A DNA stretch of 64,000 bases. It comes from an uncultured Clostridium sp. (GTDB lineage Bacteria > Bacillota > Clostridia > TANB77 > CAG-508). Under the pieces are notes generated by a model, which did not search any database, had not been told where the DNA came from, and saw nothing but the letters and a program-made list of their open reading frames with translations. The stretch spans positions 760 to 64,759 of the forward strand of contig CANSPP010000004.1 of assembly GCA_947648905.1 (NCBI GenBank), read 5' to 3'. Below, piece by piece: positions 4,616-24,673 of the stretch (position 1 is the stretch's first letter; every line of letters begins with the position of its first letter). Made by a program: the position numbers and the translations under genes.

Positions 4616-4629
4616 GTTGCAATTGCAAC
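4616..4629. promoter_or_regulatory. palindromic operator GTTGCAATTGCAAC about 55 bp upstream of nrdD start (member of TGTTGC-N4-GCAACA motif)
   Basis: perfect 14-bp palindrome; same half-sites as 18423-18438 and 24658-24673. Confidence 0.5.
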
Positions 4630-4632
4630 TTT

Positions 4633-4676
4633 TTGGATAAAAAAATTTAGAGACGTGTTTTTATTTACACGCCTCT
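4633..4676 (-). terminator. rho-independent terminator after mnmA
   Basis: hairpin AGAGGCGTGTAAATAAAAACACGTCTCT followed by AAATTTTTTTATCC on minus strand. Confidence 0.7.
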
Positions 4677-4703
4677 AAGGAAACAAGTTTTATTACAATT
4701 ATA

Positions 4704-5756
4704 TTACAAAATTTTACCTCCGCCTAAAACTAAATCTCCATCATAAAAAACAGCAGATTGTCCAGGTGTTATAGCTCTTTGTGGCTCATCAAAAATAACC
4801 TTGATTTCGTCATTTTCCTGAATTATTTTCGCTTTAGCAGCTTTTGAAGAATATCTAGTTTTAACTTCAACATCAATCCAATCTTCTATTTTATCAACTA
4901 AAATCAAGTTGATATCTTTCACTCTTATCTCTTTTGTATATAACGCTTTTTCTTCTCCAACAATAACTTCGTTTCTAGCTTTATTGAAACCTAAAACAAA
5001 TAATGGCACAGGATTAGAAATTCCAAGACCTTTACGTTGTCCAATTGTATAATAATATAAACCTTTATGTTTTCCTAAAACTTCGCCTTTTGAGTTTACT
5101 ATATTACCTTCTTTTGGTTTTAAATCCGAATTATTTTCCAAGAATTTTTTATAATTTCCATCTGGTATAAAGCAAATATCTTCACTGTCTGGCTTGTTTG
5201 CAACTTTTAGATTGTTTTTTCTCGCTATTTCTCTTATTTGCTCTTTTTCTTCAAAGTCTGCCAAAGGAAATAATATATGCTCTACTAATTCTTTTGGTAT
5301 GTTCCATAACACATAACTTTGGTCTTTTTTTCCTGCATTTGATTTTGCTAATGCCCATCTTTGATATTTTTCGCTATATACTATTTTTGCATAATGACCT
5401 GTTGCTATATAATTACATCCTAATTCTTTTGCTTTTTCCCACATTGCACCAAATTTCATATACTTGTTACATTCTATACAAGGATTTGGTGTTTTGCAAT
5501 TTGAGTAGCAGTCTATAAAATCATTTATAACATATTTTTTGAATTCTTCTTTATAGTTATATGTAAAGTGTGGGACACCTATTTGATTACACACATTCTT
5601 AGCATCTATATATGTTTCTATATTACAACAGCTACTCCCTGCAAATAGTTCTAGTGTTGTTCCTATTACTTCATATCCTTTTTCTTTTAATAGTAAAGCT
5701 GATACACTACTGTCTACTCCACCGCTCATTCCTAATAATACTTTTTTATTTTCCAT
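4704..5756 (-). CDS. mnmA: tRNA 2-thiouridine(34) synthase
   Basis: 350 aa, MENKKVLLGMSGGVDSSVSALLLKEKGYEVIG PP-loop. Confidence 0.93.
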   Translation of the reverse strand: MENKKVLLGMSGGVDSSVSALLLKEKGYEVIGTTLELFAGSSCCNIETYIDAKNVCNQIGVPHFTYNYKEEFKKYVINDFIDCYSNCKTPNPCIECNKYMKFGAMWEKAKELGCNYIATGHYAKIVYSEKYQRWALAKSNAGKKDQSYVLWNIPKELVEHILFPLADFEEKEQIREIARKNNLKVANKPDSEDICFIPDGNYKKFLENNSDLKPKEGNIVNSKGEVLGKHKGLYYYTIGQRKGLGISNPVPLFVLGFNKARNEVIVGEEKALYTKEIRVKDINLILVDKIEDWIDVEVKTRYSSKAAKAKIIQENDEIKVIFDEPQRAITPGQSAVFYDGDLVLGGGKIL

Positions 5757-5766
5757 TTTTATTCCT

Positions 5767-6198
5767 CTATTTTTTATTCAATATATCTTCAATTGTATGC
5801 CAAGCAAGCAAAGCACATTTCACCCTTGCTGGCATATTTGAAATATTTCTAAAAGCAATTGCATCTTCTAGTTTTTCTAATTCTTCTTCGCTTGTTGTTT
5901 CTCTTTTTATCATTTCTATAAATGTTTTTATTATTTCTTTTGCTTCTTCTACTGTTTTTCCTTTTAATGTATCTATCATAATTGATGTTGAAGCTTGTGA
6001 AATAGCACATCCATGTCCTGTAAATGCCATATCTTCGATTGTATTTCCATCTAATTTTATTTCTATTTCTATTTCGTCTCCACAGTTTGGGTTATGCCCT
6101 AATTCTGAATAGTCAGCTTTTTCTAGTTTCTTTTTGTTGTATGAATTCATACTGTGTTCCATTATTAGTTCATTATACATTTGACTTAGTTCGTCCAT
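5767..6198 (-). CDS. sufU: SUF Fe-S cluster assembly scaffold/sulfur-transfer protein (SufU/NifU-like)
   Basis: 143 aa, GHNPNCGD...GHGCAISQAS motifs. Confidence 0.85.
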   Translation of the reverse strand: MDELSQMYNELIMEHSMNSYNKKKLEKADYSELGHNPNCGDEIEIEIKLDGNTIEDMAFTGHGCAISQASTSIMIDTLKGKTVEEAKEIIKTFIEMIKRETTSEEELEKLEDAIAFRNISNMPARVKCALLAWHTIEDILNKK

Positions 6199-6228
6199 TT
6201 TTCTTTCCTTTCGTTTTATTCTATTTTA

Positions 6229-6257
6229 GTTGACAATTTATTTTATGTGTGTTAATA
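6229..6257 (+). promoter_or_regulatory. orphan sigma70-type promoter TTGACA-17-TAATAT on plus strand with no downstream ORF
   Basis: ttgacaatttattttatgtgtgttaatat; feeds directly into a hairpin/terminator at 6303-6342. Confidence 0.5.
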
Positions 6258-6263
6258 TAATAA

Positions 6264-6342
6264 TATAAAGGATAAGAGCTATGCCCTTATCTCTCTGGTT
6301 GGTGAGATTTATCCGCGGGATAGATCTCTATTTTTCTTTTTT
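6264..6342 (+). ncRNA. candidate ~80-nt sRNA, convergent and antisense to 3' end of the small membrane-peptide gene (putative type I antitoxin)
   Basis: perfect promoter upstream; terminator GAGATTTATCCGCGGGATAGATCTC (11-bp stem) + TATTTTTCTTTTTTT at 6303-6342; overlaps peptide gene 6287-6342. Confidence 0.35.
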
Positions 6343-6448
6343 TGGAATAATACTTTAATTGATATCTATTCTTCGAACACATATGTATTAAAAATCCTAT
6401 TCCTATAAAGAAAACTACTAATATTAACAGGATTCCTATTAATTTCAT
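6287..6448 (-). CDS. 53-aa membrane peptide, candidate type I toxin (TxpA/BsrG-like architecture)
   Basis: MKLIGILLILVVFFIGIGFLIHMCSKNRYQLKYYSKKRKIEIYPADKSHQPER: one TM helix + basic tail; strong RBS AGGAGG-9nt-ATG 6448; own promoter and structured leader. Confidence 0.5.
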   Translation of the reverse strand: MKLIGILLILVVFFIGIGFLIHMCSKNRYQLKYYSKKRKIEIYPADKSHQPER

Positions 6449-6589
6449 AGCCATCAACCTCCTTCTTACGTAATTTACATTTAAGCTATAAAAAGCATAA
6501 ATGCATAGATTAGTAAGCATATATTACATAAACTTACCAGTCTATGCACTTATGCTTGAAGGAAGTTGATTTGTTTACCAACCAATCGA

Positions 6590-6618
6590 ATTATACCATA
6601 AGATAAATCGGCAGTCAA
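6590..6618 (-). promoter_or_regulatory. internal promoter TTGACT-17-TATAAT after sufS driving the small peptide (and sufU-mnmA)
   Basis: minus strand ATTGACTGCCGATTTATCTTATGGTATAATTCG; leader 6494-6556 forms 15-bp stem AGCAUAAGUGCAUAG/CUAUGCAUUUAUGCU. Confidence 0.55.
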
Positions 6619-6641
6619 TAATTTTGCAAACTTTTTTTCGT

Positions 6642-7862
6642 TTATTTTACAATATATTTTTCAAACATCTTGTACGCTTTTTCAAGCCCTGCAACTAGCT
6701 TATCCACATCTTCCTTAGTATTATAGAAATAGAAACTTGCCCTACAAGTAGAATCAATTCCCATAAATCTAAGAAGAGGTTGAGCGCAATGATTACCAGA
6801 ACGTACACATACATTTTGAGAGTCTAATATGCTTGCAACATCGTGTGGGTGAATTCCTTTTATATTAAAAGATATTACGCCTGAATGATTTTCTTTATTT
6901 GGTGTTAAATATAAGTCTATATATCCTAATTTTGATAATTGTTCTCTTGCATATTCTAAAACTTCATTTTCCATTTTGTGAATATTTTCGTATCCAATTT
7001 CTTCTATATAATCAATTGCAGCTCCTAACCCGATTACACCTTCGACGTTTTGTGTTCCTGCTTCGAATTTATTAGGAAGTGGTGCATATGTTGTTTCTTG
7101 CTCATATACATATTCAATCATATCTCCACCCATTAAAAACGGAGACATCTTATTTAATATTTCTTTTTTTCCATATAATATCCCAATACCTAAAGGTGCT
7201 AGCATCTTGTGTCCTGAGAATACTAAAAAATCACAATTTAATTCTTGTACATCTATTTTCATATGAGGTATACTTTGAGCCGCATCAACTATAACAATTG
7301 CTCCTTTTTTATGAGCATAGTCTATTATTTTTTTTACATTGTTTATTGTTCCTAAAACATTTGAAACTTGTGTTATTCCAACAATTTTTGTTTTGTCTGT
7401 TATTTTACTTTCAATTTCTTCGTCTGCAATTTCAAAATTATCATTTATGTACATATAGTTTAACTTGCTACCTGTTGCTTTTGCAACTTTTTGCCAAGGG
7501 ACAATGTTAGAATGATGTTCCATTATTGATACTACTATTTCATCATCTTTTTTTAATTCATTTAAACCATATGAATATGCAATCAAGTTTAAGCTTTCTG
7601 TTGCATTTTTTGTGAATATCACTTCTTCTCTATGTTTTGCATTTATAAACTTTGCAATTTTTGTTCTTGTATTTTCATATTGCTCAGTTGCTTCAATACT
7701 TAGAGAATATGCTCCTCTATGTGGATTGGCATTACTTTTTTCATAAAAATTGTCTATTGCTTCTATTACTTGTCTTGGTTTTTGTGTTGTTGCTCCACTG
7801 TCTAAATACGCTATATCGTTTTGTAATATTGGAAAATCATTTTTTATCTTTTCTATATCCAT
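6642..7862 (-). CDS. sufS: cysteine desulfurase, SufS/NifS family (PLP)
   Basis: 406 aa, ...RSGNHCAQPL... class II desulfurase signature. Confidence 0.9.
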   Translation of the reverse strand: MDIEKIKNDFPILQNDIAYLDSGATTQKPRQVIEAIDNFYEKSNANPHRGAYSLSIEATEQYENTRTKIAKFINAKHREEVIFTKNATESLNLIAYSYGLNELKKDDEIVVSIMEHHSNIVPWQKVAKATGSKLNYMYINDNFEIADEEIESKITDKTKIVGITQVSNVLGTINNVKKIIDYAHKKGAIVIVDAAQSIPHMKIDVQELNCDFLVFSGHKMLAPLGIGILYGKKEILNKMSPFLMGGDMIEYVYEQETTYAPLPNKFEAGTQNVEGVIGLGAAIDYIEEIGYENIHKMENEVLEYAREQLSKLGYIDLYLTPNKENHSGVISFNIKGIHPHDVASILDSQNVCVRSGNHCAQPLLRFMGIDSTCRASFYFYNTKEDVDKLVAGLEKAYKMFEKYIVK

Positions 7863-7878
7863 TTTAATTTCCTTTCAA

Positions 7879-8934
7879 TTAATCTAGCCTTACTTCCATT
7901 TCATTAATAATTTGTTCTTTTAAATCTTCATTTGGGATATTTTCAAGAACTTTATTAAATTTAGCTCTTAACATAAGTTTTAAAGCTTCTTTTAATTCAA
8001 ATCCTCTACTCATAATATAAAATAGTTCTTTTTCTCCTATTTTACCAGCACTTGTTGCGTGATTTCCTTCTACGTCTTCTTCTTCACATAACAACATTGG
8101 AAGTGCGATTGATTTTGCTGTGTCTGATAAAATTGTACAGTATTCATTTTCATTTCCAATTGCTTTTTTACAACCTCTTTTGAAATCTATTGTACCTTTG
8201 AAATTCTTCTTCGCATTGTCTTTTATCGCACCTTGAACATCTATATCCAAATTGCTTTGTTCTCCCCATAATTCACCTATATAATTTAGGTCAAATATTT
8301 GCTCTTTTCTTCCTAAATATATTGTATTTATTGTGCTATCTGCTTTGTTTCCTTTTATGTTAGAATAATAATTTGTTATACTAGTTTTTCCACCAAAATC
8401 TACTACTATATATTTTAGAGTGCTTTTTGCCTCTAATTCATTTTCAATACTGATAAAATTATTTGTTTGTTCATTTACTAAATTTAATAGTATTACATTT
8501 ACTTTAGAATTTTCATTAGTATTTACTTTTATTATTCCATTATGAAAACCTTGTACATTTTTTTCTGTTTCATATTTTACTATAATAGTTGCTTCTATTT
8601 CTGGTTCTGTATTAATTTTAATGTTTTCTACTAAATTTTTATTTTGTTCACTTAATACAAAATCTAATTGTAGTGGTTCTTTTAAACTTTCTTTTATGTC
8701 TATTTCTAGTTCTACATTTGGTTTACTTATTATTCCAACTCCATATTTTAGTTCCATATTATTTGACTTTTCAGTTATTTCTGTTGAACTTGTCTTACCT
8801 TTTATTTCTAAACTTTCAAAACTTCCTATTTCTTCTGGAATTGTTATATTTTTTAATTTTATGTTATTTATATTGTAATTTCTTGAAGTTCTTACTGGTG
8901 TTTGATTTAATTTTAATTCTTCCATATTATCCAA
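7879..8934 (-). CDS. sufD: Fe-S cluster assembly protein SufD
   Basis: 351 aa, C-terminal SufB/SufD fold ...KELFYIMSRGFELKEALKLM. Confidence 0.85.
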   Translation of the reverse strand: MDNMEELKLNQTPVRTSRNYNINNIKLKNITIPEEIGSFESLEIKGKTSSTEITEKSNNMELKYGVGIISKPNVELEIDIKESLKEPLQLDFVLSEQNKNLVENIKINTEPEIEATIIVKYETEKNVQGFHNGIIKVNTNENSKVNVILLNLVNEQTNNFISIENELEAKSTLKYIVVDFGGKTSITNYYSNIKGNKADSTINTIYLGRKEQIFDLNYIGELWGEQSNLDIDVQGAIKDNAKKNFKGTIDFKRGCKKAIGNENEYCTILSDTAKSIALPMLLCEEEDVEGNHATSAGKIGEKELFYIMSRGFELKEALKLMLRAKFNKVLENIPNEDLKEQIINEMEVRLD

Positions 8935-10327
8935 TTGCTCCTTCCAATTCTAAGTTAATTAGATTATTCATTTCTACTGCATACTCTACTGGTAGTTCTT
9001 TTGATATTGGATAAGCAAAACCTCTTACTATCATTGCTTTTGCGTCTTCTTCTGACAATCCTCTACTCATCAAATAGAAAATTGTTTTATCACTAATTTT
9101 TCCAATCTTTGCTTCATGAGAAAATTCAACTTCATCTGTTCTTATGTCATTTACTGGAATTGTATCTGATTTTGATATATCGTCTAGCATAAGTGATTCG
9201 CAAGATACTACTGATTTTGAGTTTTTTGCGTTTTCATTTATTCTTACTAGTGAACGATATGTACAAGTTCCACCATCTTTTGAAATTGACTTTGCATTTA
9301 CAACACTTGATGTATTTTTAGCATTATGTACAACTTTAAATCCATTATCTAAATTTTGTCCTTTTCCTGCAAACGAAATTCCTGTGAATTCTGTTTTAGA
9401 ACCTTCTCCATTTAATATGCTCATTGGATATAACATAGATATTCTTGATCCAAATGAACCTGAAACCCAGTCTACTTGTGCATTCTTTCCTACTATTGCT
9501 TTTTTAGTATTTAAGTTAAGCATATTTTTTGACCAGTTTTCTATTGTTGAATATCTTAAATATGCATTATCCTTTACATATAGTTCAACACAACCTGCGT
9601 GTAAATTAACTTTGTTGTATTTAGGTGCACTACATCCTTCAATAAAATGTAAGCTTGCTCCTTCTTCTACAATAATTAATGTGTGTTCAAATTGTCCTGA
9701 TTCTGGTGAATTTAGTCTAAAATAAGATTGTAATGGAATATCCACTTTTACACCTTTTGGAACATATACAAATGAACCTCCTGACCAAACTGCTCCATGT
9801 AATGCAACAAATTTATGGTCATATACAGGTACACATTTCATAAAATGTTCTTTTACAATCTCTGGATATTCACGTACAGCAGTTTCCATATCTGTATAAA
9901 TTACACCTTGTTTTATCAAATCTTCTTTCATACTATGGTAAACAACTTCTGAATCATATTGAGCACCAACTCCTGCAAGTGAAGTCTTTTCAGCTTCTGG
10001 AATTCCAAGTTTGTCAAAAGTTTCTTTTATATCATCTGGTACATCCTCCCAACTATTACTCATTTTTGTTTTTGGTCTAACATATGTTGCAATCTCATCC
10101 ATATTTAATTCTGACAAATCTGGACCCCAAGTTGGCAACTCTAATTTATTATATACATCTAAAGCTTTTAATCTAAACTCTCTCATCCAATCTGGGTCAT
10201 TTTTTTGTTTAGAAAGTTCTTCTATAATTTCCTTTGTCAAACCTTTTTCTATTTTATAGTCATATTCGTCTTTATTTTTTATATCATATATATTTCTATT
10301 AATATCTTCTATTTGGGTTTTAGCCAT
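8927..10327 (-). CDS. sufB: Fe-S cluster assembly protein SufB
   Basis: 466 aa, typical SufB. Confidence 0.93.
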   Translation of the reverse strand: MAKTQIEDINRNIYDIKNKDEYDYKIEKGLTKEIIEELSKQKNDPDWMREFRLKALDVYNKLELPTWGPDLSELNMDEIATYVRPKTKMSNSWEDVPDDIKETFDKLGIPEAEKTSLAGVGAQYDSEVVYHSMKEDLIKQGVIYTDMETAVREYPEIVKEHFMKCVPVYDHKFVALHGAVWSGGSFVYVPKGVKVDIPLQSYFRLNSPESGQFEHTLIIVEEGASLHFIEGCSAPKYNKVNLHAGCVELYVKDNAYLRYSTIENWSKNMLNLNTKKAIVGKNAQVDWVSGSFGSRISMLYPMSILNGEGSKTEFTGISFAGKGQNLDNGFKVVHNAKNTSSVVNAKSISKDGGTCTYRSLVRINENAKNSKSVVSCESLMLDDISKSDTIPVNDIRTDEVEFSHEAKIGKISDKTIFYLMSRGLSEEDAKAMIVRGFAYPISKELPVEYAVEMNNLINLELEGAIG

Positions 10328-10333
10328 TTTAAC

Positions 10334-11065: not shown

Positions 11066-11084
11066 TTCTATACTTCCTTTCATT

Positions 11085-11119
11085 GTGTCCAATTGGGGAC
11101 GTTTCCTTTTTGGACATTG
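11085..11119. repeat. dispersed palindromic repeat TGTCCAATTGGGGACGTTTCC-TTTTTGGACA
   Basis: gtgtccaattggggacgtttcctttttggacattg; family member. Confidence 0.7.
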
Positions 11120-11145
11120 TATCTAATTGGTTTATATTATTAAAT

Positions 11146-11619: not shown

Positions 11620-11653
11620 TTAAACCTCTCTATTTTATATTGTTTTAGCGATT

Positions 11654-11698
11654 GTTAATCACGGTTAACATTATACTATTTTAAGTTTTGTTTGTCAA
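11654..11698 (-). promoter_or_regulatory. promoter TTGACA-17-TATAAT for dtxR-suf operon with overlapping 18-bp imperfect palindrome TGTTAACCGTGATTAACA (candidate DtxR-family operator)
   Basis: minus strand cTTGACAaacaaaacttaaaatagTATAATgttaaccgtgattaaca. Confidence 0.55.
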
Positions 11699-11705
11699 GG
11701 CTAAC

Positions 11706-11737
11706 ATTTGTTTTTTACAAAAAAAAGATACACCAAT
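11706..11737 (-). terminator. rho-independent terminator after the 91-aa gene
   Basis: GGTACACC-TAATT-GGTGTATC then TCTTTTTTTT on minus strand. Confidence 0.65.
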
Positions 11738-11762
11738 TAGGTGTACCTTTTTACTTACTTTG

Positions 11763-13265: not shown

Positions 13266-14601
13266 ATGGAGAAAAATATGAAAGATTTTTTTATTATATT
13301 AATTATGAAAATACTAAACATTATTCTAAAAATCTGTAGAAAAAAAGGTGGTAACTTCTTAGGAAAAATAGCATTTGACTGGGACCCTAATATATTCAAA
13401 TACTTCAAAGTAACTTGTCCTGTTATCGCAGTTACTGCAACAAACGGAAAAACTATGACAAATAATGCAATTGGCTATGTTTTTAAAACAGCTGGAAAAA
13501 AAGTAATTAGCAATACAGAAGGAAACAATATGGAAACTGGCATACTTTCAACTTTATTAAAAAGCTGTAGTTTAACAGGAAAAATCAAAGCTGACTATTT
13601 AGTTTTTGAAGTTGACGAAGGCTATGTACCTGTTGTATTTAAAGACTTAAGACTAGACACTTTAGTTATACTAGATTTCTTCCGTGACCAATTAGATAGA
13701 AATGGAGAGGTTGAATCTTTAATATTAAAAATCAATGAATTCTTAAAAACTTACACTGGCAACCTTGTATTAAACAATGACGACCCCAATGTTGCAAGAC
13801 TTCGGACAAGCCAATCCAGATAATCACAACGTTTATTATTTCAGTGTAGAAAAATACGAATATGCAACAAAAGAACTAAAAGAAGCAGGAGAAGGAAAAT
13901 TCTGTCCATTCTGTAATACACGTATAGAATATGAATATTATCAATATTCTCATATTGGTAAATTTAAATGTCCTAATTGTAATTATGGAGATAATGAAAT
14001 TTATAAATTGGCAACAAATGTTGATTTAAAAAATAGAACATTTAGTGTTGATGATGTAACCTATAAAATTAGATTTAACAGTATCTATAACATTTATAAT
14101 TTTATTGCTGTTATATCTTGTGTAAGTCTATATTCCATAGAAACAGAAATAGTACAAAAAGCTTTATCTACATTTATTTTAAATAATGGTAGATTAGAAG
14201 AATTAGAAATAAAAGGCGTTCCTACAATAATAAATTTGGCAAAAAACCCAACTGGATGTAATGTAAGCCTTCGTATTTTAAATGAAGATGATGACAAAAA
14301 AGAATTGTTATTTGTTTTGAATGATAATTTAGCAGATGGTCACGATGTTTCTTGGATTTGGGATATTAATTTCGATGATTTAAATAATGTTTCAAGAATT
14401 GTAACTGCTGGAACAAGAGCTTATGATATTGCAATTAGAATTAAAACTTCTGGATTTGATGCTAGCAAAATTGAACCTTTTCTAAATTTAAAGGAAGCTG
14501 TTGATAATTTCTACAAAACTGATGTTAAAAAATATGTTATTGCAAATTATACTTCTCTTCAACCTACTAGAAAAGAAATTTTAGCTTTAAATTCTAAATA
14601 A
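13266..14601 (+). CDS. murT: lipid II isoglutamine synthase Mur-ligase subunit MurT; reading frame interrupted at 13803 (surplus C before GGA)
   Basis: AVTATNGKTMT Mur ligase P-loop, ...NNDDPNVARL then frame +1 continues GQANPDNHNVYYF, Zn ribbon CPFCN...CPNC and DUF1727; matches S. aureus MurT DDPFVSRLKIASDTIVYY. Confidence 0.85.
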
Positions 14602-15439: not shown

Positions 15440-16147
15440 TCAATAGAATACAACCACATTCTGCAGCTGAATTACTGGCACTTCGGCAATTTTGTTGTTC
15501 TTAGCAAAAGTAAATGATACAAATCCGCCAAGCAGGTGCTTATCCCTATCTACAATAATCGGCTTTTGAAAGTTCTTATATTTAGAATAGAATTTTGCTA
15601 CCTTTTCATACTTGGTCTGTTTGTGACTTGTTTTAGTATCTTTTCGTTCAGACTTATACTTTACTCCTTCTTTTCCACCTCTAATTTTATCTGTCCTCAT
15701 TCCTCTAACCCATATATCGTCTTCTTCGCTATACAAGTGAGAGAATTTTGTGTCATACCGTAGAGCTTCATTTTGAGCCATACATTCTTTTGCAAACTGA
15801 GAACGTTCTTTTTGTCCTTCAATTTCCAAATATTTTGAATGCTGTTCTGGCATAAGGTTTGCTTTACGTTCATTGCATTCTTTGCAATATGGAATAAGAT
15901 TGTTTGTAATGTCTGGTCCACCATAATCTTGTGGAATAATATGGTCAACTGTCATCATATTACTCTTAGTTTTCTGGTTGCAGCATTTACAAATATTTTT
16001 TCCATATATTGCATAAGTCAAATCTTTCATAAGAGATTTAAAACCTACATCAAATCTCATATATAAGATTCCATCTTCGATAAAAACTACCCTTTTCTGG
16101 CCTCTTTCATCGTACCGAGTAAATTGTTCTGGTAATATAATATTCAT
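15440..16147 (-). CDS. HNH endonuclease domain protein (foreign codon usage)
   Basis: CKCCNQKTKSNMMTVDHIIPQDYGGPDITNNLIPYCKECNERK HNH motif; GC-richer codons incl. two in-frame CGG Arg codons (15758-15760, 16115-16117). Confidence 0.8.
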   Translation of the reverse strand: MNIILPEQFTRYDERGQKRVVFIEDGILYMRFDVGFKSLMKDLTYAIYGKNICKCCNQKTKSNMMTVDHIIPQDYGGPDITNNLIPYCKECNERKANLMPEQHSKYLEIEGQKERSQFAKECMAQNEALRYDTKFSHLYSEEDDIWVRGMRTDKIRGGKEGVKYKSERKDTKTSHKQTKYEKVAKFYSKYKNFQKPIIVDRDKHLLGGFVSFTFAKNNKIAEVPVIQLQNVVVFY

Positions 16148-16235
16148 TATATTTACCTCCTATCTATTATGTTTACATTATATAATGTATCTCATATATC
16201 TGTCAATAAAAATGTCGAAATATGTCAACTTTTAT

Positions 16236-18362
16236 TTACAAATGCATTACTCTTTGCTTTATTTCTTTTGTTTTTCCAACATTCCAGAAATTCTCTCCTA
16301 AATATCCGCAGGTCCTTCTTACTACTGTCATTTTATTATGGTCTTTATTTCCACAATTTGGGCATTCCCACTCATTATCTTTGTTTATTATTATTTCGCC
16401 ATCAAATCCGCACTTATGGCAATAATCTGACTTTGTATTAAATTCAGCATATTGAATATTGTCATAAATAAATTGTACTACTGTTTCTAATGCTTTTATG
16501 TTTTTGTTCATATTTGGTATTTCAACATATGAGATAGAACCACCTGTTGAGATTTTTTGGAATTCACTTTCAAATTCTAATTTTGCAAATGCATCGATTT
16601 CTTCTCTTACATCTACGTGATATGAATTTGTATAATATCCTTTATCTGTTATGTCTTTTATTGTTCCAAATTTTTCTTTATCAATTCTTGCAAATCTGTA
16701 ACATAAGCTCTCTGCTGGTGTTCCATATAGCGCAAATCCTATGTTTGTTTCCTTTTTCCATTTTTGTGTTGTTTCTTTTAAATAATTCATAACTTTAAGT
16801 GCAAACTCGCGTCCTTCTTCTGTTGTGTGAGATACACCTTTTACTAGTTTTGTAAGCTCATATATTCCAATATATCCAAGTGACATTGTAGAATATCCGC
16901 CATATAATAACTTGTCTATTTTTTCACCTTTTTTCAATCTTGCTAATGCTCCATATTGCCAGTGAATTGGGCTTATATCAGAACTTGTTCCAAGTAGTGC
17001 ATAATGTCTACACATTAATGCTTCTTTGCAAAGTTCCAATCTTTCATCTAATAGTTTCCAGAATTTTTCTTCGTCACCATCTGCTATAATTCCTATTTGT
17101 GGTAAGTTGATGCTTACTACACCTTGATTAAATCTTCCTTCAAATTTGTATTTTCCATTTTCGTCTTTCCAAGGTGATAAGAAACTTCTACATCCCATTG
17201 GGCTAAATACGTTTCCTTCGTAGTTTTCACGCATTTTTTTAGCTGATATATAATCTGGATACATTCTTTTTGCTGAACATTTTACTGCAAGTTTTGTTAG
17301 GTAGTCATATTCCCCACCTTTTAAATTGTTGAATTCATCTAATACATATACAAGCTTTGGAAATGCTGGTGTTACATATACTCCTACCTCGTTTTTTACT
17401 CCTTCATATCTTTGATTAAGGATTTCTTCTATTATCATTGCATTTTCTTTGATATATGGGTCGTCTTTTTCTAAATGTAAGAATAATGTTACAAATGGAG
17501 ATTGCCCATTTGTTGTCATTAGTGTATTTATTTGATATTGCATTGTTTGTATTCCTGCTTTTAATTCTGCTTTTACTCTTTCTTCCACTAATTCCTCTAT
17601 CATTTCTTTTGATAGTTGTTTTCCGTGTTTTTCTTCAAGCTCTTTTTTATATTTATTATAGCTTACTCTTAGGTATTTTCCTAAATGTATCATATCTATT
17701 GATTGTCCGCCATATTGGTTACTTGCCACTGTTGCAATTATTTGTGTTGTTACTGTACAAGCCACTTGGAAACTTTTTGGACTTTCTATCATTTTCCCAT
17801 ACATTACAGTTCCATTGTCTAGCATATCACCTATGTTTACTAAACAGCAATTAAATATTGGTTGTATAAAATAATCTGCATCGTGGAAATGTAAAATTCC
17901 GTCTTCATGTGCTTTTGATATCTTTTCTGGTAGTAGCATTCTTTTTGTTAAATCTCTTGAAACTTCTCCTGCTATGTAATCTCTTTGTGTTGATGCTAAC
18001 ATTGTGTTTTTGTTTGAGTTTTCTTCTGCTAGTTCTTTGTTTTCGTTTCTTAAAAGGCCTAATATAGATTCGTCTGTTGTGTTTTGTTTTCTTACTAATG
18101 CTCTTGTGTATCTATATACTATGTATCTTTTTGATAGTTCATATCTTTGTATTTCCATTAGTTTTTGTTCTATTATGTCTTGTATGTCTTCTACTAATAT
18201 TCTTTTTTTGCCCATTTCTTCAATATAGTTTATTATTTCTTTTATTTCTTCTTTTGTGGCTCTCTCTTTTGGTCTTACTTCTTGGTTTGCTTTTTCGATT
18301 GCTATTTTGATTTTTTCTCTATCAAAATCTACTACTTGTCCATTTCTTTTTATAACTTTCAT
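16236..18362 (-). CDS. nrdD: anaerobic ribonucleoside-triphosphate reductase (class III RNR), copy 2
   Basis: 708 aa, ~60% identical to copy 1, ATP-cone MKVIKRNGQVVDFDREKIKIAIEKAN, RRTCGYLG glycyl radical motif, CPNCGN. Confidence 0.95.
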   Translation of the reverse strand: MKVIKRNGQVVDFDREKIKIAIEKANQEVRPKERATKEEIKEIINYIEEMGKKRILVEDIQDIIEQKLMEIQRYELSKRYIVYRYTRALVRKQNTTDESILGLLRNENKELAEENSNKNTMLASTQRDYIAGEVSRDLTKRMLLPEKISKAHEDGILHFHDADYFIQPIFNCCLVNIGDMLDNGTVMYGKMIESPKSFQVACTVTTQIIATVASNQYGGQSIDMIHLGKYLRVSYNKYKKELEEKHGKQLSKEMIEELVEERVKAELKAGIQTMQYQINTLMTTNGQSPFVTLFLHLEKDDPYIKENAMIIEEILNQRYEGVKNEVGVYVTPAFPKLVYVLDEFNNLKGGEYDYLTKLAVKCSAKRMYPDYISAKKMRENYEGNVFSPMGCRSFLSPWKDENGKYKFEGRFNQGVVSINLPQIGIIADGDEEKFWKLLDERLELCKEALMCRHYALLGTSSDISPIHWQYGALARLKKGEKIDKLLYGGYSTMSLGYIGIYELTKLVKGVSHTTEEGREFALKVMNYLKETTQKWKKETNIGFALYGTPAESLCYRFARIDKEKFGTIKDITDKGYYTNSYHVDVREEIDAFAKLEFESEFQKISTGGSISYVEIPNMNKNIKALETVVQFIYDNIQYAEFNTKSDYCHKCGFDGEIIINKDNEWECPNCGNKDHNKMTVVRRTCGYLGENFWNVGKTKEIKQRVMHL

Positions 18363-18422
18363 TCTACATTTCCCCCTTCTAAGTTTTACTTCGTTTATTA
18401 TATATTAACTTTAGTTACTTTC

Positions 18423-18438
18423 TGTTGCAAAAGCAACA
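18423..18438. promoter_or_regulatory. palindromic operator TGTTGCAAAAGCAACA ~60 bp upstream of nrdD copy 2
   Basis: identical 16-mer at 24658-24673; 5-N6-5 (CRP/FNR-like geometry). Confidence 0.55.
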
Positions 18439-18584
18439 AGCAAACTTATTTTTTTCATAAGTTTGCTTGTTTGTATGTTTTGATGTTTTATTACATTTTT
18501 ATTACAAATTTAATTCTTAAATTATAGTATTAACACTAAAAAACAAAATTTTATTCATAGCATTCTTTTATTCTCATAATACTA

Positions 18585-19751
18585 TTAAAATTTAATTCTA
18601 TTAAATTCATCATACAGTTCAATTAGATAATCACATACTTCATTGTTTCTTATAATTACATTTTCCGCGATTTTACTGCAGTAATTACAATTCAAACAAT
18701 TTCCTGTACAATGATCATTTTTAAAAAAATTAATAAATCCATCTAATTTTTGATTATCAATATATATATGTCTAGGATATCTTCTTTCACATCCCAAACC
18801 TCTTACTGTACGTATTTTTTCAACTATTTCATTTTTAGACATATTCTTTACTTTATTATCATTTATTGTTAGTTCTTCTTTAGAATTGCTCCAACCGTGC
18901 CCTTGAATTAAATCCAATAAATTTCCATTATATTTTCTTTCACTATACGCTTTTACTCTTTTTATAATCTCATCAGTTGGAAAATCTCTTTCAGTAATTT
19001 TAAAATGTTCTATCCCAATATTTTCATATTCTTTAATATCTTCTGGTCTAATCCAAGGCGACTTTATGTATTCCTCTAAATTCTTTAATTCATATTCTTG
19101 ACATTTGTATAAACACCAATCTGCATAATGTTCTTTATCCTTATTCATTGAATTTGATGCATGTGATAAAGCTGCTGTATGTGTATGAATATATGGACAA
19201 TTTTTTAAACAACTATTTGTCATAAGTAATTCTATTTTCGCTTTTTTTAGATTATCAACCATATATTTTAAAGTTTTAAAGTCTCTATTAATTTTCACAA
19301 AATCTACACAAACATAATCTGCTCCCATTTCTTCCCAAAATTTAGCTTTTTCAAAACTATCTATACAGGCAAATGTTGAAATTCTAACTGTAAAACAGTC
19401 ATAATATTTTTTTATTATTTGTAACAAAAAAGGATTTGTTACCGTTAAAGCATTAACGCCTATTTCTTTTAAGTAATCTAGAAATTTTCTAACATTTTGT
19501 TGCCATTCTTCACTTTGCTCCTTATTAGCAAGACAAGCTCCATTTAATAAATAATTAAATTTTATATTATTTTCTCTAACTTTCTTTACATGCCTCTCGA
19601 GCATAGTTTTATCTATATTTTTTAATGTATTTGATGGTCTTCCTCCCCCAACATAATCTTGTTGTAATTTTCCGTAAACTTCATATACTGGATAATCTTT
19701 TAACTTATCTATTAGTTCGTCATCAAAATTAGTAGCTACTGATAATTTCAT
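18585..19751 (-). CDS. uncharacterized protein, weak peptidase-U32-like TIM-barrel features, Cys-rich C-terminus (CTGNCLNCNYC)
   Basis: start at ATG 19751 (MKLSVATNF...) with RBS AAAGGAG; ...VTNPFLLQIIKKYYDCFTVRISTFACIDSFEKAKFWEEMGADYVCV resembles U32 core. Confidence 0.4.
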   Translation of the reverse strand: MKLSVATNFDDELIDKLKDYPVYEVYGKLQQDYVGGGRPSNTLKNIDKTMLERHVKKVRENNIKFNYLLNGACLANKEQSEEWQQNVRKFLDYLKEIGVNALTVTNPFLLQIIKKYYDCFTVRISTFACIDSFEKAKFWEEMGADYVCVDFVKINRDFKTLKYMVDNLKKAKIELLMTNSCLKNCPYIHTHTAALSHASNSMNKDKEHYADWCLYKCQEYELKNLEEYIKSPWIRPEDIKEYENIGIEHFKITERDFPTDEIIKRVKAYSERKYNGNLLDLIQGHGWSNSKEELTINDNKVKNMSKNEIVEKIRTVRGLGCERRYPRHIYIDNQKLDGFINFFKNDHCTGNCLNCNYCSKIAENVIIRNNEVCDYLIELYDEFNRIKF

Positions 19752-19764
19752 AATTATCACTCCT

Positions 19765-20811
19765 TTATAATATTTTCTTACATTTCTTTATAAAATTTCT
19801 ATTTGTTTTTCTATCTTGAACTGCAATTCTAAAATGAATATTCTTTTCTTCATCTTCTATAATCATTAACGAAATATCGTTTTTATTGAATTTTTCTATT
19901 ATCTCATAACTTAATTTAGTTTTAGAAAACAAAATATTTGATTCACTTGGATAAAATTCTATATTAAGTTTTCTTAGGTTTTTTTCTATATTCTTACGTT
20001 CTTTCATTATTAATTTTATATTCTTTTTGTAATTATTACTTAAAAGGATTTTTTTAGCATACTCACATGAAATCCCAGAAACTTCATTAACAGTTATATT
20101 TTCTTCATATATTTTCTTAAACTTTCTTGAGCAAATCATATATCCTATTCTTAAACCAGCAATTCCATAAGCCTTTGATAATGATTTTATAACTATAATA
20201 TTGTCTGGCATCTCTATTTTAGACAAACTGCTTTTATTGGAAAATTCAATTGCTGACTCGTCTACAATAACATATACATTTACATTTTCAGCAATATATT
20301 TTATCTCTTCGTTACTCATAAGCATTCCTGTTGGATTATTTGGATTGCATATATAAATCATTTTTGTATCCGCGTCAACACTTTTTATTATGCCTTCTGC
20401 ACTCACTTTTACGTTTTCTTTCATATATACTCTTTTAGTACTTCCGTTCATTGCAGTAACTGCATATTCTGCTTGATTAAATGTCAAAAACGGTGTGACT
20501 AGATTTCCTGAATTTTTAAACAAAATTTTTATTATATTTTGAAGAATGCCATTTGCACCTGCTCCTATAATAATTTCTTTTGTTTTAATATCTTGAATTG
20601 TCTTAATTGTCTCTCTTAATTCTTTAACTATATAATGTGATGGATACTCAGAAAGATTTGAATAATTAATTGTAAATTTTGGATATTTATATAGATACTT
20701 ACCAGATAATGTCATATCAATCTGTTTTGTTTCATAGTTAGTATAATCATCTAAAAAATTGCGCTTAGATATTTGATATGCCTTATTTCTTAAGCCTGAT
20801 TGTATATACAT
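19765..20811 (-). CDS. PLP-dependent aminotransferase, class I/II (HisC/CobD-like)
   Basis: 348 aa, SLSKAYGIAGLRIGYMI PLP-lysine region. Confidence 0.75.
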   Translation of the reverse strand: MYIQSGLRNKAYQISKRNFLDDYTNYETKQIDMTLSGKYLYKYPKFTINYSNLSEYPSHYIVKELRETIKTIQDIKTKEIIIGAGANGILQNIIKILFKNSGNLVTPFLTFNQAEYAVTAMNGSTKRVYMKENVKVSAEGIIKSVDADTKMIYICNPNNPTGMLMSNEEIKYIAENVNVYVIVDESAIEFSNKSSLSKIEMPDNIIVIKSLSKAYGIAGLRIGYMICSRKFKKIYEENITVNEVSGISCEYAKKILLSNNYKKNIKLIMKERKNIEKNLRKLNIEFYPSESNILFSKTKLSYEIIEKFNKNDISLMIIEDEEKNIHFRIAVQDRKTNRNFIKKCKKIL

Positions 20812-22501
20812 TTCTTTTACCTATCCCTACATCTGTTATGTGTTCATCAACATTTTTCTCTATATAAAATCCATTTTCTTTAACTATTTGGTTTATTTCT
20901 TCTTTTGATAGCAATACCATAGGTGGTCTATTTTCAACTTCATACACACCCTTTCCTAGATATTTTAAATCTTCTGTAATTATATCATTTGTAAATACTG
21001 ATAAAATTACATATCCATTCTTTTTTAATATCCTATTAAATTCCTTAATAGTATTTATAAATTCTATTTTAGTAGTTGCATTATGAATAACTCCAATTGA
21101 CAATATAATATCGAAAATTTCAGAAGATGTAGGTATATTGTCCATATTGGCTTGTACAAATTCAATATTTTCTTTTTCCAAAGAAAATGCCATTTCTTTA
21201 TATTTATCAACCGCTAAAACATTATATCCGTGGCTATTTAAATATCTTGAATATCTTCCTCCTCCACATCCGATATCTATTACTTTATCTATTTTTCTTT
21301 TATTACTTATTTCTTCTATTTCTTTTACTATATATTGAGAAACTGGTTTCTCTGTAAATTTTTTTGCGACTTCTTCATCTTGCCAAAATATTGTTTTTTC
21401 CTCTTTATTTTTTACTGTATAAGTACTATTGCAAATACTGGTTTCAATTACATTCATTCCTACTTTTTGCATTGTATCTTTACAAATTTCCTTTTGCTCT
21501 TCATTTTTTACTATTGCCATAAAAGCTGGTCCTACTGATGATAATGTTAAAAATTCACAGCAATTATTCTCATACAATTTTCTTAGTTCATTAGCTTTTT
21601 CTATTGTCTTTTCATATACAAATGAGCAGTTTTCAATACTTCCCATATTAAATCTATAATCAAATACAATATCTGCTAACTCTCTAATATTTCCATTGCA
21701 AAGTCCTGGTAATGCTTTATGTAATAAATTATATGCAATTTTTTCTGCATATTTATCACCTGTTCTCTTAAACTTCCACAAATTTTCTTCTTCTAATTTC
21801 ATTAATTCTTCTGCACTTTTAGGATTAAAATCATTTGGAATTGCTATTAATACTTTTGCATCATATTTCAATTTTGCTATTGTTGTTGCTTTGCCTGCAA
21901 TAATTATAATTCCTTCTTCAGTTAATCCGTTTGTAGCGCCTCCACCAATACATTGAACCATCTTCAGTTCTTCTTCATTTTCATCTGATATTTCTTCTCC
22001 ATGATTACTAGCTAAGAATTTTATCAAATCTTTGTTAGCTATAGGACATCCATATAATTCATTAATAGCTACCGCTACTGCCGTTATTGTAGAACTACTA
22101 GATCCAAATCCACAGTGCTTTATAACTTTAGAGGAATCTACATCTATTTTTAAAGACGGATTTACATTTAATATTTTAGTCATAATTCTATATGCATGCT
22201 TTATTAGTACTTTTCTTTGTGTTCTATCTGAAATCTCAAGTAACCCACCTGCTTCAGAAGTAATTTCTATTCCTACTTTAATTTTTATATTTAATGAAAT
22301 TACTACTTCACCTGGTGTAAATATTAAATCGTTATTATAGCAAACAGCAGCTGGATTTATGGCCATTGCGTCCATCCTACATGGATATTCTATATTTATC
22401 TTGTTGTACTTCAACTTTAAATTTTCTTCTATTGTATGAGGATATTTACTAAAAATATATCCTGCTTTAAATGTTGGAAATCTATCTACCACTTTTACCA
22501 A
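20783..22501 (-). CDS. fusion protein: GHMP-kinase-like domain (beta-RFAP-synthase/PduX-like) + class I SAM-dependent methyltransferase
   Basis: N-terminal HCGFGSSSSTITAVAVAINE GHMP motif; C-terminal VIDIGCGGGRYSRYL SAM motif I; start uncertain (non-ATG, GTG 22492 has RBS). Confidence 0.6.
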   Translation of the reverse strand: MVKVVDRFPTFKAGYIFSKYPHTIEENLKLKYNKINIEYPCRMDAMAINPAAVCYNNDLIFTPGEVVISLNIKIKVGIEITSEAGGLLEISDRTQRKVLIKHAYRIMTKILNVNPSLKIDVDSSKVIKHCGFGSSSSTITAVAVAINELYGCPIANKDLIKFLASNHGEEISDENEEELKMVQCIGGGATNGLTEEGIIIIAGKATTIAKLKYDAKVLIAIPNDFNPKSAEELMKLEEENLWKFKRTGDKYAEKIAYNLLHKALPGLCNGNIRELADIVFDYRFNMGSIENCSFVYEKTIEKANELRKLYENNCCEFLTLSSVGPAFMAIVKNEEQKEICKDTMQKVGMNVIETSICNSTYTVKNKEEKTIFWQDEEVAKKFTEKPVSQYIVKEIEEISNKRKIDKVIDIGCGGGRYSRYLNSHGYNVLAVDKYKEMAFSLEKENIEFVQANMDNIPTSSEIFDIILSIGVIHNATTKIEFINTIKEFNRILKKNGYVILSVFTNDIITEDLKYLGKGVYEVENRPPMVLLSKEEINQIVKENGFYIEKNVDEHITDVGIGKRNVYTIRLKK

Positions 22502-22544
22502 CTCCTTTTATTTGCTAATTCTTTGTTAAATTTTTCTGCAAACT

Positions 22545-23144
22545 TTAACTATCAATGTTATTTCCTTCGATTACATTTTCTCTATACCACTTTGCAAATT
22601 GGTCTTTTGCATCTCCCCAAAAAGTTGATTCATATTCATAATCTTCTTCTCGTAACTCGCTTAAAGTTTTACTTTCTCCATCTGGTATATAAAATTTGTC
22701 ATGCCATCTTCCGCGAGTTCCTTTCGGTTCAAATGCTATCTTTCCTGTTCCACCTCCTGAAAAAACAATAGGTTCATTATTTGGTTCACAATATGCAAAA
22801 CAGTGTTCTATTCTTGCTTTTCTATTTTTTTCATTTTTAAATAGTTCCAAAAACTTTTCTACCCCTATCTGTTTATCAAAATACGCATTATATGGCCCTG
22901 GCAATCCTCCTAAAGCTTCTATGTATAATCCTGTATCTGATTTTAGAACTGAACATCCTAATTTATTTGCTGCATATTTTGCACTAAATGCAACTACTTC
23001 TGCACAAGTTTTAGCTTGTGTCTCTAAAATTTCAAAATCTGGATTTACAATTTCTATGTTAAATCCATATTTTTTTGAAAAAAACTCATTAGCTTCTTCA
23101 ACTTTATGCTGATTTGTTGTTAAGTAAATTAATTTCCTTTTCAT
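22545..23144 (-). CDS. non-canonical purine NTP pyrophosphatase (Ham1/RdgB/ITPase family)
   Basis: 199 aa, LTTNQHKVEEAN ... Ham1 motifs. Confidence 0.8.
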   Translation of the reverse strand: MKRKLIYLTTNQHKVEEANEFFSKKYGFNIEIVNPDFEILETQAKTCAEVVAFSAKYAANKLGCSVLKSDTGLYIEALGGLPGPYNAYFDKQIGVEKFLELFKNEKNRKARIEHCFAYCEPNNEPIVFSGGGTGKIAFEPKGTRGRWHDKFYIPDGESKTLSELREEDYEYESTFWGDAKDQFAKWYRENVIEGNNIDS

Positions 23145-23722
23145 TATCTTTCATCCTCTCTTTCCTTCACATTTGATTTTATTATAATGTCTTCCATAGT
23201 TTCTATGAAACTATCAGTATTATCATTTTGCAAATACACGCAAGATTTTATTGCATATTGCTCTAATTGCTCTAATCCCATATCTTTTTCTTGTTGTAAA
23301 ATCATCTCAAACTGCTCATCTGTCAAATTAATTTTTTCTCTTCTTTGATAATTATTTTTTAATTGTTCAAATGGCGCTGCTATATATATTATTTGTGGAT
23401 TTTCTATTGAAAATCTATTTGCAATAAATTTAATCCCATTCAAAGACCTACTACCTGTTATTATAGTTATATCTTTATCTTGTCCTTTGAATAATCTTTC
23501 TATTTGCTTGCACAATATTATATCTGTAAAATTTTCACCATATTTTTCTTCTCCATCTTTAATCCATTCACTTAATGATATATTAGGTGAAAATATTTTA
23601 TGAGCTTCTCTTATTAATGGTCCTAAATCTATATGCTCCACATTATAATCTTTTTTTAACTTATTAACTATATATGTTTTTCCAACACCATGCGGTCCTA
23701 CCAAAAAGAACACATTTTTCAT
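23144..23722 (-). CDS. P-loop NTPase, nucleoside/nucleotide-kinase-like
   Basis: 192 aa, FLVGPHGVGKTYIVNKL Walker A; stop overlaps downstream ATG (TAATG). Confidence 0.6.
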   Translation of the reverse strand: MKNVFFLVGPHGVGKTYIVNKLKKDYNVEHIDLGPLIREAHKIFSPNISLSEWIKDGEEKYGENFTDIILCKQIERLFKGQDKDITIITGSRSLNGIKFIANRFSIENPQIIYIAAPFEQLKNNYQRREKINLTDEQFEMILQQEKDMGLEQLEQYAIKSCVYLQNDNTDSFIETMEDIIIKSNVKEREDER

Positions 23723-23979
23723 TTTACCACTCCATTCTGTTTATTATTATAAATTATCCTGTGTATCCTTTTGGGTTTTTCTTTTGTTCCTACTTTCTAA
23801 TTATATGTTGGAATTATATTATCTTTTAATTGTTTTTCATTTTCATACCTTCATTTGCATTATAGCACCGTTTATCCTCATTGTAAATATATTTTTTAAA
23901 ATTATTATCATTTCATTATGTACAACAAAAATTACACTATAAAAAGTACAAAAATGCCAGTATTATGACTGACATTATT

Positions 23980-24612
23980 CTAATATATTTTTAATGTAAT
24001 TTTATTTTTATTTTTCTCAATAAATCCATCTTCTTTAAGAAGCTTCATTTCACGCATCATAGCACTTCTATCAACACTCAAATAATCAGCCAAATCAGTT
24101 AAAGAAAAAGGCAACGTAAAAGTCTTATTCAACGTCCTTGTAGAAAGAAGCGTAAAATATCCAAGTAGTTTCTCACGAATGGTTCTCTTTGTTAATAGCT
24201 CCACACGCATATTTAAATCTATAACTTTGTTTAAAATTAATTCTGGTAAATTCTCAGTTAGGAAATTGTGAAATTTACAATTGCTCCTGCATTTAGTATG
24301 TATACTATCATATATATATATTAAAACTTCACATTTTTCACGAGCTTCTACTAGTAACTCGTTGTTTGTTGTTACGGTATAAAACACTTCACCAAAGATA
24401 TCGTTTTTGGATAGATGCTCTACTATGGTTCTGTTTCCGTTTAAATCATAACGTACCAAATCTGCATTTCCACTTATCAGTATGCAAAATTGATTTCTTT
24501 TTTGTATGTATGTTGTTATTACTTCGTTTTTTGAAAAAGTTTTCTTTTGTACTCTGTGACAGTTATGTTCAAAGTCGTTTATGAAACTGTCCATATCAAA
24601 ATTCAAATTCAT
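23980..24612 (-). CDS. Crp/Fnr family transcriptional regulator
   Basis: cNMP-binding N-domain and C-terminal HTH (TLPFSLTDLADYLSVDRSAMMREMKLLKEDGFI); start set to ATG 24612 (RBS AAGGG); track start is GTG inside operator. Confidence 0.8.
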   Translation of the reverse strand: MNLNFDMDSFINDFEHNCHRVQKKTFSKNEVITTYIQKRNQFCILISGNADLVRYDLNGNRTIVEHLSKNDIFGEVFYTVTTNNELLVEAREKCEVLIYIYDSIHTKCRSNCKFHNFLTENLPELILNKVIDLNMRVELLTKRTIREKLLGYFTLLSTRTLNKTFTLPFSLTDLADYLSVDRSAMMREMKLLKEDGFIEKNKNKITLKIY

Positions 24613-24642
24613 TTTTATCAACCCTTTTTCAATTCTGAAGTT

Positions 24643-24673
24643 ATTATATAACACTTTTGTTGCAAAAGCAACA
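24643..24673 (-). promoter_or_regulatory. promoter (-10 TATAAT, -35 TTGCTT) of Crp/Fnr gene overlapped by palindrome TGTTGCAAAAGCAACA (24658-24673)
   Basis: minus strand TTGTTGCTTTTGCAACAAAAGTGTTATATAAT. Confidence 0.5.

Follow-up and report, generated by a model that had tools for sequence, protein, structure and literature searches.

A Crp/Fnr-family regulator and its predicted palindromic operators at the class III ribonucleotide reductase genes of an uncultured Clostridium

Strict anaerobes, among them many uncultured gut Clostridia, make their DNA precursors mainly through class III ribonucleotide reductase (RNR). Control of class III RNR by members of the Crp/Fnr superfamily is already known in Proteobacteria, where FNR (Escherichia coli, Salmonella) and Anr/Dnr (at nrdD of Pseudomonas aeruginosa) act as dimers that activate transcription through a site of 5-N4-5 layout (PMC10425943, PMC2892513, PMC5645315). 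For activation of E. coli nrdDG, FNR uses sites at -33.5 and -64.5 (PMC10425943). Outside Proteobacteria, transcriptional control of class III RNR is usually credited to NrdR, a general RNR repressor that acts on operons including nrdDG through palindromic boxes in their promoters (PMC12051234). Local Crp/Fnr regulators with altered 5-N4-5 sites are also known in Clostridia; HcpR2, which occurs in Clostridia, Bacteroides, and Thermotogales, is a predicted regulator of hcp/frdX with the site GTAAC-N4-GTTAC (PMC1274295). Here we describe a stretch of 64,000 nucleotides (the window) from an uncultured Clostridium sp. (contig CANSPP010000004.1), in which three palindromes at the promoters of two nrdD genes, nrdD1 and nrdD2, and of a gene for a Crp/Fnr-superfamily regulator are predicted to be operators of that regulator.

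The core common to the three sites is GTTGC-N4-GCAAC (14 bp). At the nrdD1-nrdG promoter (core 4616-4629) it forms the perfect 14-bp palindrome GTTGCAATTGCAAC within the 16-mer TGTTGCAATTGCAACt (4615-4630), and its centre is 65 nt upstream of the true start codon of nrdD1 (ATG 4557). The core at the nrdD2 promoter (18424-18437) reads GTTGCAAAAGCAAC on the plus strand and GTTGCTTTTGCAAC in the orientation of the gene; its centre lies 68 nt, and its near edge 61 nt, from the ATG. The third core (24659-24672) is in the regulator's own promoter, and the 16-mer that contains it (24658-24673) is identical to that at nrdD2 (18423-18438), namely TGTTGCAAAAGCAACA. A preliminary description of this DNA, made from the letters alone, had reported the shared 16-mer and the perfect palindrome; pattern searching returned them at exactly the same coordinates, and the distances to the two nrdD genes and the overlap with the -35 and spacer of the regulator gene proved accurate on reading of the sequence.

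The motif is much more frequent in the window than expected. With up to two mismatches to the pattern there are 11 matches against 1.7 expected, a number reached in none of 100 shuffles. A position weight matrix built from orthologous sites and run across the window picked out four outstanding sites, the three intergenic promoter sites and one within sufS; thus three of the four exact cores of the window lie in the promoters named in the preliminary description. The next-best site, after which scores drop sharply, is inside fmt (52401); being intragenic and having one mismatch, it was treated as a chance match and not as an operator. A dispersed repeat was also considered and rejected, because the flanks of the three sites are unrelated except for the motif itself, a CAG at the nrdD sites, and the -10.

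All three sites have a close relationship to a -10 hexamer, TATAAT, on the minus strand. This hexamer lies 21 nt downstream of the operator core at both nrdD1 (4589-4594) and nrdD2 (18397-18402), and 10 nt past the core at the regulator promoter (24643-24648). A consensus promoter scan found no -35/-10 pair at the nrdD promoters of the window, where nothing resembling a -35 stands at the proper distance and nrdD1 has no -35 match. In the regulator promoter, the -35 hexamer TTGCTT (24666-24671, minus strand; TTGCAA in most species) is separated from the -10 by a 17-nt spacer and is itself the upstream half-site of the operator. When the -10 hexamer is taken as -12 to -7, the operator centre falls at approximately -40.5 relative to the inferred transcription start at both nrdD promoters and at approximately -29.5 at the regulator promoter. 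Relative to the predicted -10, the nrdD operators would therefore sit in the position of a class II activator site, which is near -41.5 and replaces the -35.

Comparative footprinting in related genomes, which the preliminary description had proposed as a check, was strongly positive, as judged from at least 73 of 79 regulator promoters, the spacing at 53 of 57 nrdD promoters, and the distant relatives considered below. The close comparison covered 80 loci, one per species, from species-representative metagenome-assembled genomes of uncultured gut 'Clostridia' or 'Clostridium sp.', with regulators 60-100% identical to that of the window. These orthologous loci (1.30 Mb) contain 119 exact cores, compared with 0 in each of five Markov shuffles. 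All but two of the 119 are upstream of the regulator gene or of an adjacent ~708-aa gene, which is the NrdD2 orthologue by tblastn (72-98% identity in most loci, down to ~51%). Random scatter of the motif, which according to the preliminary description would speak against a regulatory role, is not seen in the 1.3 Mb of related loci, the motif being essentially absent elsewhere. An nrdD gene is present in 68 of the 80 loci (several of the other 12 are truncated contigs), and the motif precedes nrdD2 orthologues in more than 55 species. In most species regulator and nrdD are divergent with one operator each; a few species have one operator shared by the two genes.

Spacing is conserved together with sequence. 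Among the 57 nrdD promoters with an exact core, whose consensus is TTGTTGCTTTTGCAACAGAA-N-TATATAAT, 53 have a perfect TATAAT at a distance of exactly 21 nt from the core; their best -35 match never exceeds three of six positions, and no TG-extended -10 occurs in the window's clade. The regulator promoters (n = 79) include 65 exact cores and 8 with one mismatch, and the -10 is at 10 nt in 72 of these 73; most of the six apparent failures have a site with a TATACT -10 or with another spacing. Orthologues of the nrdD1 type in three species (L009, L029, L074) also have the core upstream. In two of these (L009 and L029), genes of the nrdD1 and nrdD2 types stand in tandem beside the regulator, with an operator only at the first (nrdD1-type) gene and a hairpin between the two. 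The central four bases of the nrdD operators (at more than 50 loci and at 18424-18437 in the window) are asymmetric, reading TTTT along transcription and followed by a conserved CAGAAA, and those of the regulator-promoter operators are mostly AATT or ATTT. Bending of the DNA or contact with RNA polymerase may account for the asymmetric centre at nrdD.

The association extends far beyond these species. Homologues of the regulator were found in 3,942 clusters at E <= 1e-3 and in 1,873 at E <= 1e-10 when 1.84 billion cluster representatives (50% identity clusters) were searched exhaustively with HMMER. Genomic context was looked up for nine representatives at 29-51% regulator identity, and in eight of them nrdD or an NrdD-derived gene adjoins the regulator. 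The regulator is divergent from nrdD-nrdG-dut in L081, L086, and L090, from a split nrdD with nrdG in L088, and from the N-terminus of nrdD at a contig end in L092. In L095 nrdD is immediately downstream of the regulator, and in L093 it lies 745 nt upstream, with rubredoxin alongside (L093 4692-4847). In L094 the regulator is divergent from an operon encoding an 89-aa C-terminal glycyl-radical fragment of NrdD, rubredoxin, and a flavodiiron protein (L094 3449-3902). The 89-aa protein has the glycyl-radical motif RVRRITGYLVG of the NrdD C-terminus, and its operon has an operator 22 nt before a TATAAT; the protein could act as a 'spare part' where NrdD has been damaged by O2.

The exact core is present in the relevant intergenic region of seven of the nine distant loci, and L093 has a core with one mismatch. 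The distant hosts range from 24 to 53% GC, so AT-rich DNA does not account for the motif. Core and -10 are separated by 21-23 nt at nrdD and by 10 nt at the regulator gene; the exception on the regulator side is L095, with a site located downstream of a canonical TTGACA-17-TATAAT promoter, a position predicted to be still repressing. In L083 (P0287, 61% GC), the regulator is beside Nfn/GltD-like genes, with neither a link to nrdD nor a motif nearby, indicating that the family is not uniformly a regulator of nrdD. A profile search for named or cultured homologues gave matches mainly in the same clade, and the cluster look-up returned only 'Crp/Fnr family transcriptional regulator [Bacilli bacterium]'.

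The regulator itself (23980-24612, minus strand; 210 aa) belongs to the Crp/Fnr superfamily by both of its domains and by its fold. The N-terminal domain matches cNMP_binding (Pfam PF00027, E = 2.8e-9, above cutoff) and is a beta-roll in the AlphaFold2 model. The C-terminal helix-turn-helix (HTH) domain matches HTH_Crp_2 (Pfam PF13545, E = 1.9e-7), and the model has helices at 114-140 and 171-194, the long dimerisation helix preceding the HTH. The model (pLDDT 82) is matched by Foldseek with probability 1.0 to NtcA, Clr, CRP, Vfr, CLP, CprK, and FNR. None of the NCBIfam equivalogs was reached, all scores being ~10-fold below the cutoffs. The closest solved structures by sequence are Lmo0753 of Listeria (PDB 7t8o, E = 1e-6) and TM1171 of Thermotoga (1o5l, E = 3e-4); both have the same two-domain Crp/Fnr architecture, but the matches are weak, and neither protein is known to be linked to nrdD or described with GTTGC-N4-GCAAC. 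The layout of the predicted operator (~16 bp, two-fold symmetric, 5-N4-5 / 5-N6-5) fits the geometry of Crp/Fnr sites. In the recognition helix, VDRSAMMRE, residues R182, S183, and R187 align with R180, E181, and R185 of E. coli CRP. The arginine responsible for reading the G in TGTGA is retained, as is the G in TGTTG, and the E181 position and the inner bases are both altered. In the Crp/Fnr family, changes at positions of the CRP R180/E181/R185 type track changes in the half-site (PMC1274295). The DRSAMMRE helix is nearly invariant across the subfamily, in parallel with the invariance of the motif.

The ligand-binding region diverges from that of CRP. R82 and S83, which bind the phosphate of cAMP in CRP, are replaced by N84 and E85, so that cAMP is unlikely to be the effector. 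Five residues (C18, C43, C108, C112, and H115) show no variation among 79 close orthologues. Among 120 representatives, C18, C108, C112, and H115 are distributed in an almost all-or-none manner (84 with all four, 29 with none, 7 partial), and C94 is invariant in the nine nrdD-linked members examined, at 27-41% identity. C94 aligns with C92 of CRP, the position of C122, the fourth cysteine of the E. coli FNR cluster. The C108-x3-C112-x2-H115 segment belongs to a stretch of ~10 residues that is inserted, compared with CRP, just ahead of the dimerisation helix. This Cys/His pattern may represent one metal or Fe-S centre, a possible sensor site.

The regulator resembles FNR as a predicted dimer of the same superfamily acting at a class III RNR promoter through a two-fold symmetric 5-N4-5 site, but the two differ in several respects. 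The half-site is GTTGC rather than the TTGAT of FNR (TTGAT-N4-ATCAA); a single site at approximately -40.5 stands in place of the two at E. coli nrdDG (-33.5, -64.5); the regulator is local and encoded beside nrdD, whereas FNR is global; and the hosts are strict anaerobes of the Clostridia. The N-terminal Cx2Cx5C of FNR is also lacking, the regulator having one N-terminal cysteine (C18) and others at C94, C108, and C112. BLASTP against E. coli FNR aligns only the DNA-binding domain, and the NCBIfam models FixK and FnrL give 28.5 and 18.9 bits, with cutoffs of 300 each. FNR proper is ruled out by the cysteine pattern, the half-site, and the sub-cutoff NCBIfam scores for FNR, FixK, and FnrL. CRP is ruled out by N84/E85, by its NCBIfam score (28.7 bits, cutoff 266), and by the motif: the CRP site is TGTGA-N6-TCACA, and in the TGTTG half-site only the G that the R180 equivalent contacts is retained.

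HcpR2 offers a further parallel, as a local Crp/Fnr regulator of anaerobic Firmicutes recognized by comparative genomics and having a 5-N4-5 palindrome; some of its members have Ser at the position of CRP E181 (PMC1274295), as does the present regulator. On the other hand, the half-site sequence differs, the linked gene is nrdD rather than hcp, and HcpR lacks a cysteine motif (PMC1274295), in contrast to the C18/C94/C108/C112/H115 set found here. HcpR2 is ruled out by the motif and by the nrdD neighbour (68 of 80 close and 8 of 9 distant loci). NrdR likewise controls RNR operons by palindromic promoter elements, but is an unrelated protein (Zn-ribbon and ATP-cone) with an unrelated and usually tandem box, acaCwAtATaTwGtgt. 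That box has 3 matches at 3 mismatches in the window against 3.0 expected, none upstream of nrdD, and it is found with up to two mismatches at none of 73 nrdD upstream regions of the clade, while L093, the positive control, matches. The earlier statement that the palindrome is not an NrdR box is borne out by both scans. No Rfam element was found at nrdD; the only match in the window is a S-adenosylmethionine (SAM) riboswitch before metK.

The putative targets are the two class III RNR genes and the activase gene. nrdD1 (2398-4557, minus strand; 719 aa; Pfam NRDD, ATP-cone, and Gly_radical) scores 897 bits with NF006732 (cutoff 657), and nrdD2 (16236-18362, minus strand; 708 aa), also recognized by Pfam, scores 950 bits with the same NCBIfam model. 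NrdD1 and NrdD2 are 57.5% identical and are therefore old paralogues. The sole nrdG of the window (1769-2323, minus strand; start codon uncertain) is downstream of nrdD1 and matches TIGR02491 (189 bits, cutoff 126) as well as Pfam Fer4_12 and Radical_SAM. Directly 3' of nrdD2, where relatives have nrdG and dut, the window has a free-standing HNH endonuclease open reading frame (15440-16147, minus strand), so that within the window nrdD2 lacks its own activase gene; L003 has a second, diverged copy of the HNH frame. Translation starts at 4557 and 24612 were set by comparison with NrdD2, by ribosome-binding sites, and by orthologues, in preference to mechanical calls: the first in-frame ATG of nrdD1 (4590) is the promoter TATAAT followed by G, and the GTG upstream of the regulator start (24654) falls within the promoter.

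Taken together, these observations suggest that the regulator binds the three palindromes, its operators, as a dimer and would activate nrdD, repress its own gene, and be switched by redox, O2, or Fe-S status; we assign this reading as a whole a probability of roughly 0.7. Its parts differ in strength. That the operators belong to this regulator is very probable from the sequence comparisons. Repression of its own gene is also well indicated. The dimer bound to GTTGC-N4-GCAAC at the regulator promoter would occupy the -35 and the spacer, and because the upstream half-site is the -35 hexamer, regulator and sigma factor would compete for the same DNA, resulting in negative autoregulation; fnr is also autoregulated. 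Activation of nrdD is somewhat less secure and still probable, being the likeliest outcome given an operator in the class II position and the lack of a -35. The bound dimer would most likely recruit RNA polymerase, so that nrdD1-nrdG and nrdD2 are both activated. Such co-activation would make functional sense because nrdG lies only behind nrdD1: a common operator would keep NrdD2 and the activase co-expressed. Where a single operator stands between divergent promoters, one dimer could activate nrdD and repress the regulator simultaneously. The earlier proposal that the adjacent Crp/Fnr homologue regulates itself and both nrdD genes thus finds support in comparative genomics.

The signal is the most tentative part, redox, O2, or Fe-S status being somewhat short of an even bet, although it is the likeliest choice from the analogy to FNR, the Cys/His signature, and O2-related neighbours in some distant members (rubredoxin, flavodiiron protein, the putative spare part). 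DNA binding would probably be switched by a metal or Fe-S centre with C18, C108, C112, and H115 as candidate ligands and C94 as a further conserved cysteine. Such a centre, situated at the start of the dimerisation helix, could tie expression of an oxygen-labile enzyme to redox, O2, or Fe-S status.

Several observations weigh against this picture. One nrdD-linked lineage (P0285, 'Bacilli bacterium', L088) keeps the motif and lacks the Cys/His signature entirely, C18 and C94 align with cysteines of E. coli CRP that bind no metal in that protein, and the signature could be a structural zinc site instead of a sensor. The sufS gene (6642-7862, minus strand) also contains an exact core, GTTGCTTTTGCAAC, at 7474-7487; these bases code for VAKAT, using preferred codons. 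sufS is the cysteine desulfurase gene of a suf operon, just upstream of mnmA and nrdD1; the internal core is probably coincidental, although it may be an Fe-S-related internal site. Finally, a site that overlaps the -35 region could repress as well as activate.

This last point leads to the best-surviving alternative, in which regulator and operators are the same and nrdD is repressed by promoter occlusion, as by NrdR elsewhere, until the signal relieves repression. The operator does cover the would-be -35 region of nrdD, autorepression is predicted for the same protein, and the window's clade has no NrdR box at nrdD, leaving the role of repressor vacant. However, nrdD promoters with neither a -35 (three of six matches at most) nor a TG-extended -10 would be too weak to need repression. 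Moreover, the distance from core to -10 at nrdD is fixed at 21-23 nt over 29-100% regulator identity, so that the centre falls between -40.5 and -42.5, as in class II activation, and a repressor site would allow more positional variation than is seen. Repression of nrdD is accordingly considered rather unlikely. It is far less probable that another transcription factor binds the palindrome, with the Crp/Fnr gene as a mere passenger. The pairing of protein and DNA does derive from comparative genomics, but regulator gene, motif in its own promoter, and nrdD linkage co-occur at 68 of 80 close and 8 of 9 distant loci, the two-fold symmetric 16-bp 5-N4-5 palindrome has the Crp/Fnr layout (PMC1274295), and recognition helix and motif are both invariant across the family.

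Long-stem terminators of upstream genes lie beside two of the operators, at 4647-4678 and 18435-18471; the latter, a strong hairpin, abuts the nrdD2 operator and in the sister species L001-L004 is directly 3' of the regulator gene. That the palindromes are themselves hairpins of RNA or DNA, whether as small terminators or as structural elements, or else chance products of AT-rich DNA, is scarcely credible: the 14-mer folds to a 5-bp hairpin (~-6 kcal/mol) and a crude scan flagged one copy as terminator-like, but the sequence and not just the pairing is kept, with a core invariant in hosts across the whole GC range and one-mismatch variants without compensation, the sites are upstream of the -10 and hence outside the nrdD and regulator transcripts, genuine long-stem terminators adjoin them, the chance expectation is 0 in 1.3 Mb, and none of 120 viral contigs with the extended pattern TTGTTGCNNNNGCAACAG by chance encodes NrdD or the regulator.

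The surroundings of these genes differ among close relatives. In the sister species nrdD2 directly follows the regulator, and in the window an insertion of 5.5 kb (18507-23971) lies between the regulator stop codon and the nrdD2 terminator and operator. This insertion is absent from L001, L003, and L004, and L002 holds only its Ham1 piece. It carries five minus-strand genes, for an AAA_17 P-loop protein, a Ham1/ITPase, a GHMP-kinase-methyltransferase fusion, a class I/II aminotransferase, and a U32-like protein, which may be co-transcribed with the regulator. A second window-specific insertion (24690-27062), just upstream of the regulator promoter, is absent from the four sister species. It includes an open reading frame (24818-26635, minus strand) for a 605-aa protein with AAA_15 and TOPRIM domains, the best PADLOC match of which is the single-gene OLD-family nuclease 'Old' (E = 4.8e-25); its product is probably an anti-phage defence protein. 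The SAM riboswitch (RF00162, 81.9 bits; 1640-1744, minus strand) is immediately downstream of nrdG and upstream of metK (404-1546). On the plus strand, murT is split into two overlapping frames, 13266-13823 (Mur_ligase_M) and 13777-14601 (MurT_C). The same frame shift is found in all four sister species, indicating a conserved split or programmed frameshift rather than a sequencing error.

In the open full-text literature no description of the regulator, the motif, or the nrdD linkage was found, RegPrecise and subscription journals being outside the search. Since E. coli, Salmonella, and Pseudomonas already provide examples of nrdDG under Crp/Fnr control, no concept is overturned; what is new is the specificity of the regulator-operator pair and, possibly, the sensor. 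A broader proposal is less likely than not: the regulator might represent an unrecognised, widespread Crp/Fnr subfamily (at least 1,800 clusters at E <= 1e-10, most sampled members being beside nrdD) with a new type of metal or Fe-S sensor (C18, C94, C108-x3-C112, H115), which would serve as the main class III switch in gut Clostridia instead of NrdR, couple deoxyribonucleotide (dNTP) supply to O2, redox, or Fe-S status, and in some lineages also control genes for the glycyl-radical 'spare part', rubredoxin, and flavodiiron protein.

For enzymes on which strict anaerobes depend for DNA precursors, the finding defines a dedicated, predicted regulator-operator pair with a sharp 14-bp motif, an unvarying promoter geometry, and a putative sensor signature, conserved in genomes between 24 and 53% GC. 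The proposed circuit is directly testable with named probes, point mutants, and cysteine mutants, and the motif can be used to annotate nrdD regulation in metagenome-assembled genomes. The regulator may also represent a new sensory variant of the Crp/Fnr fold.

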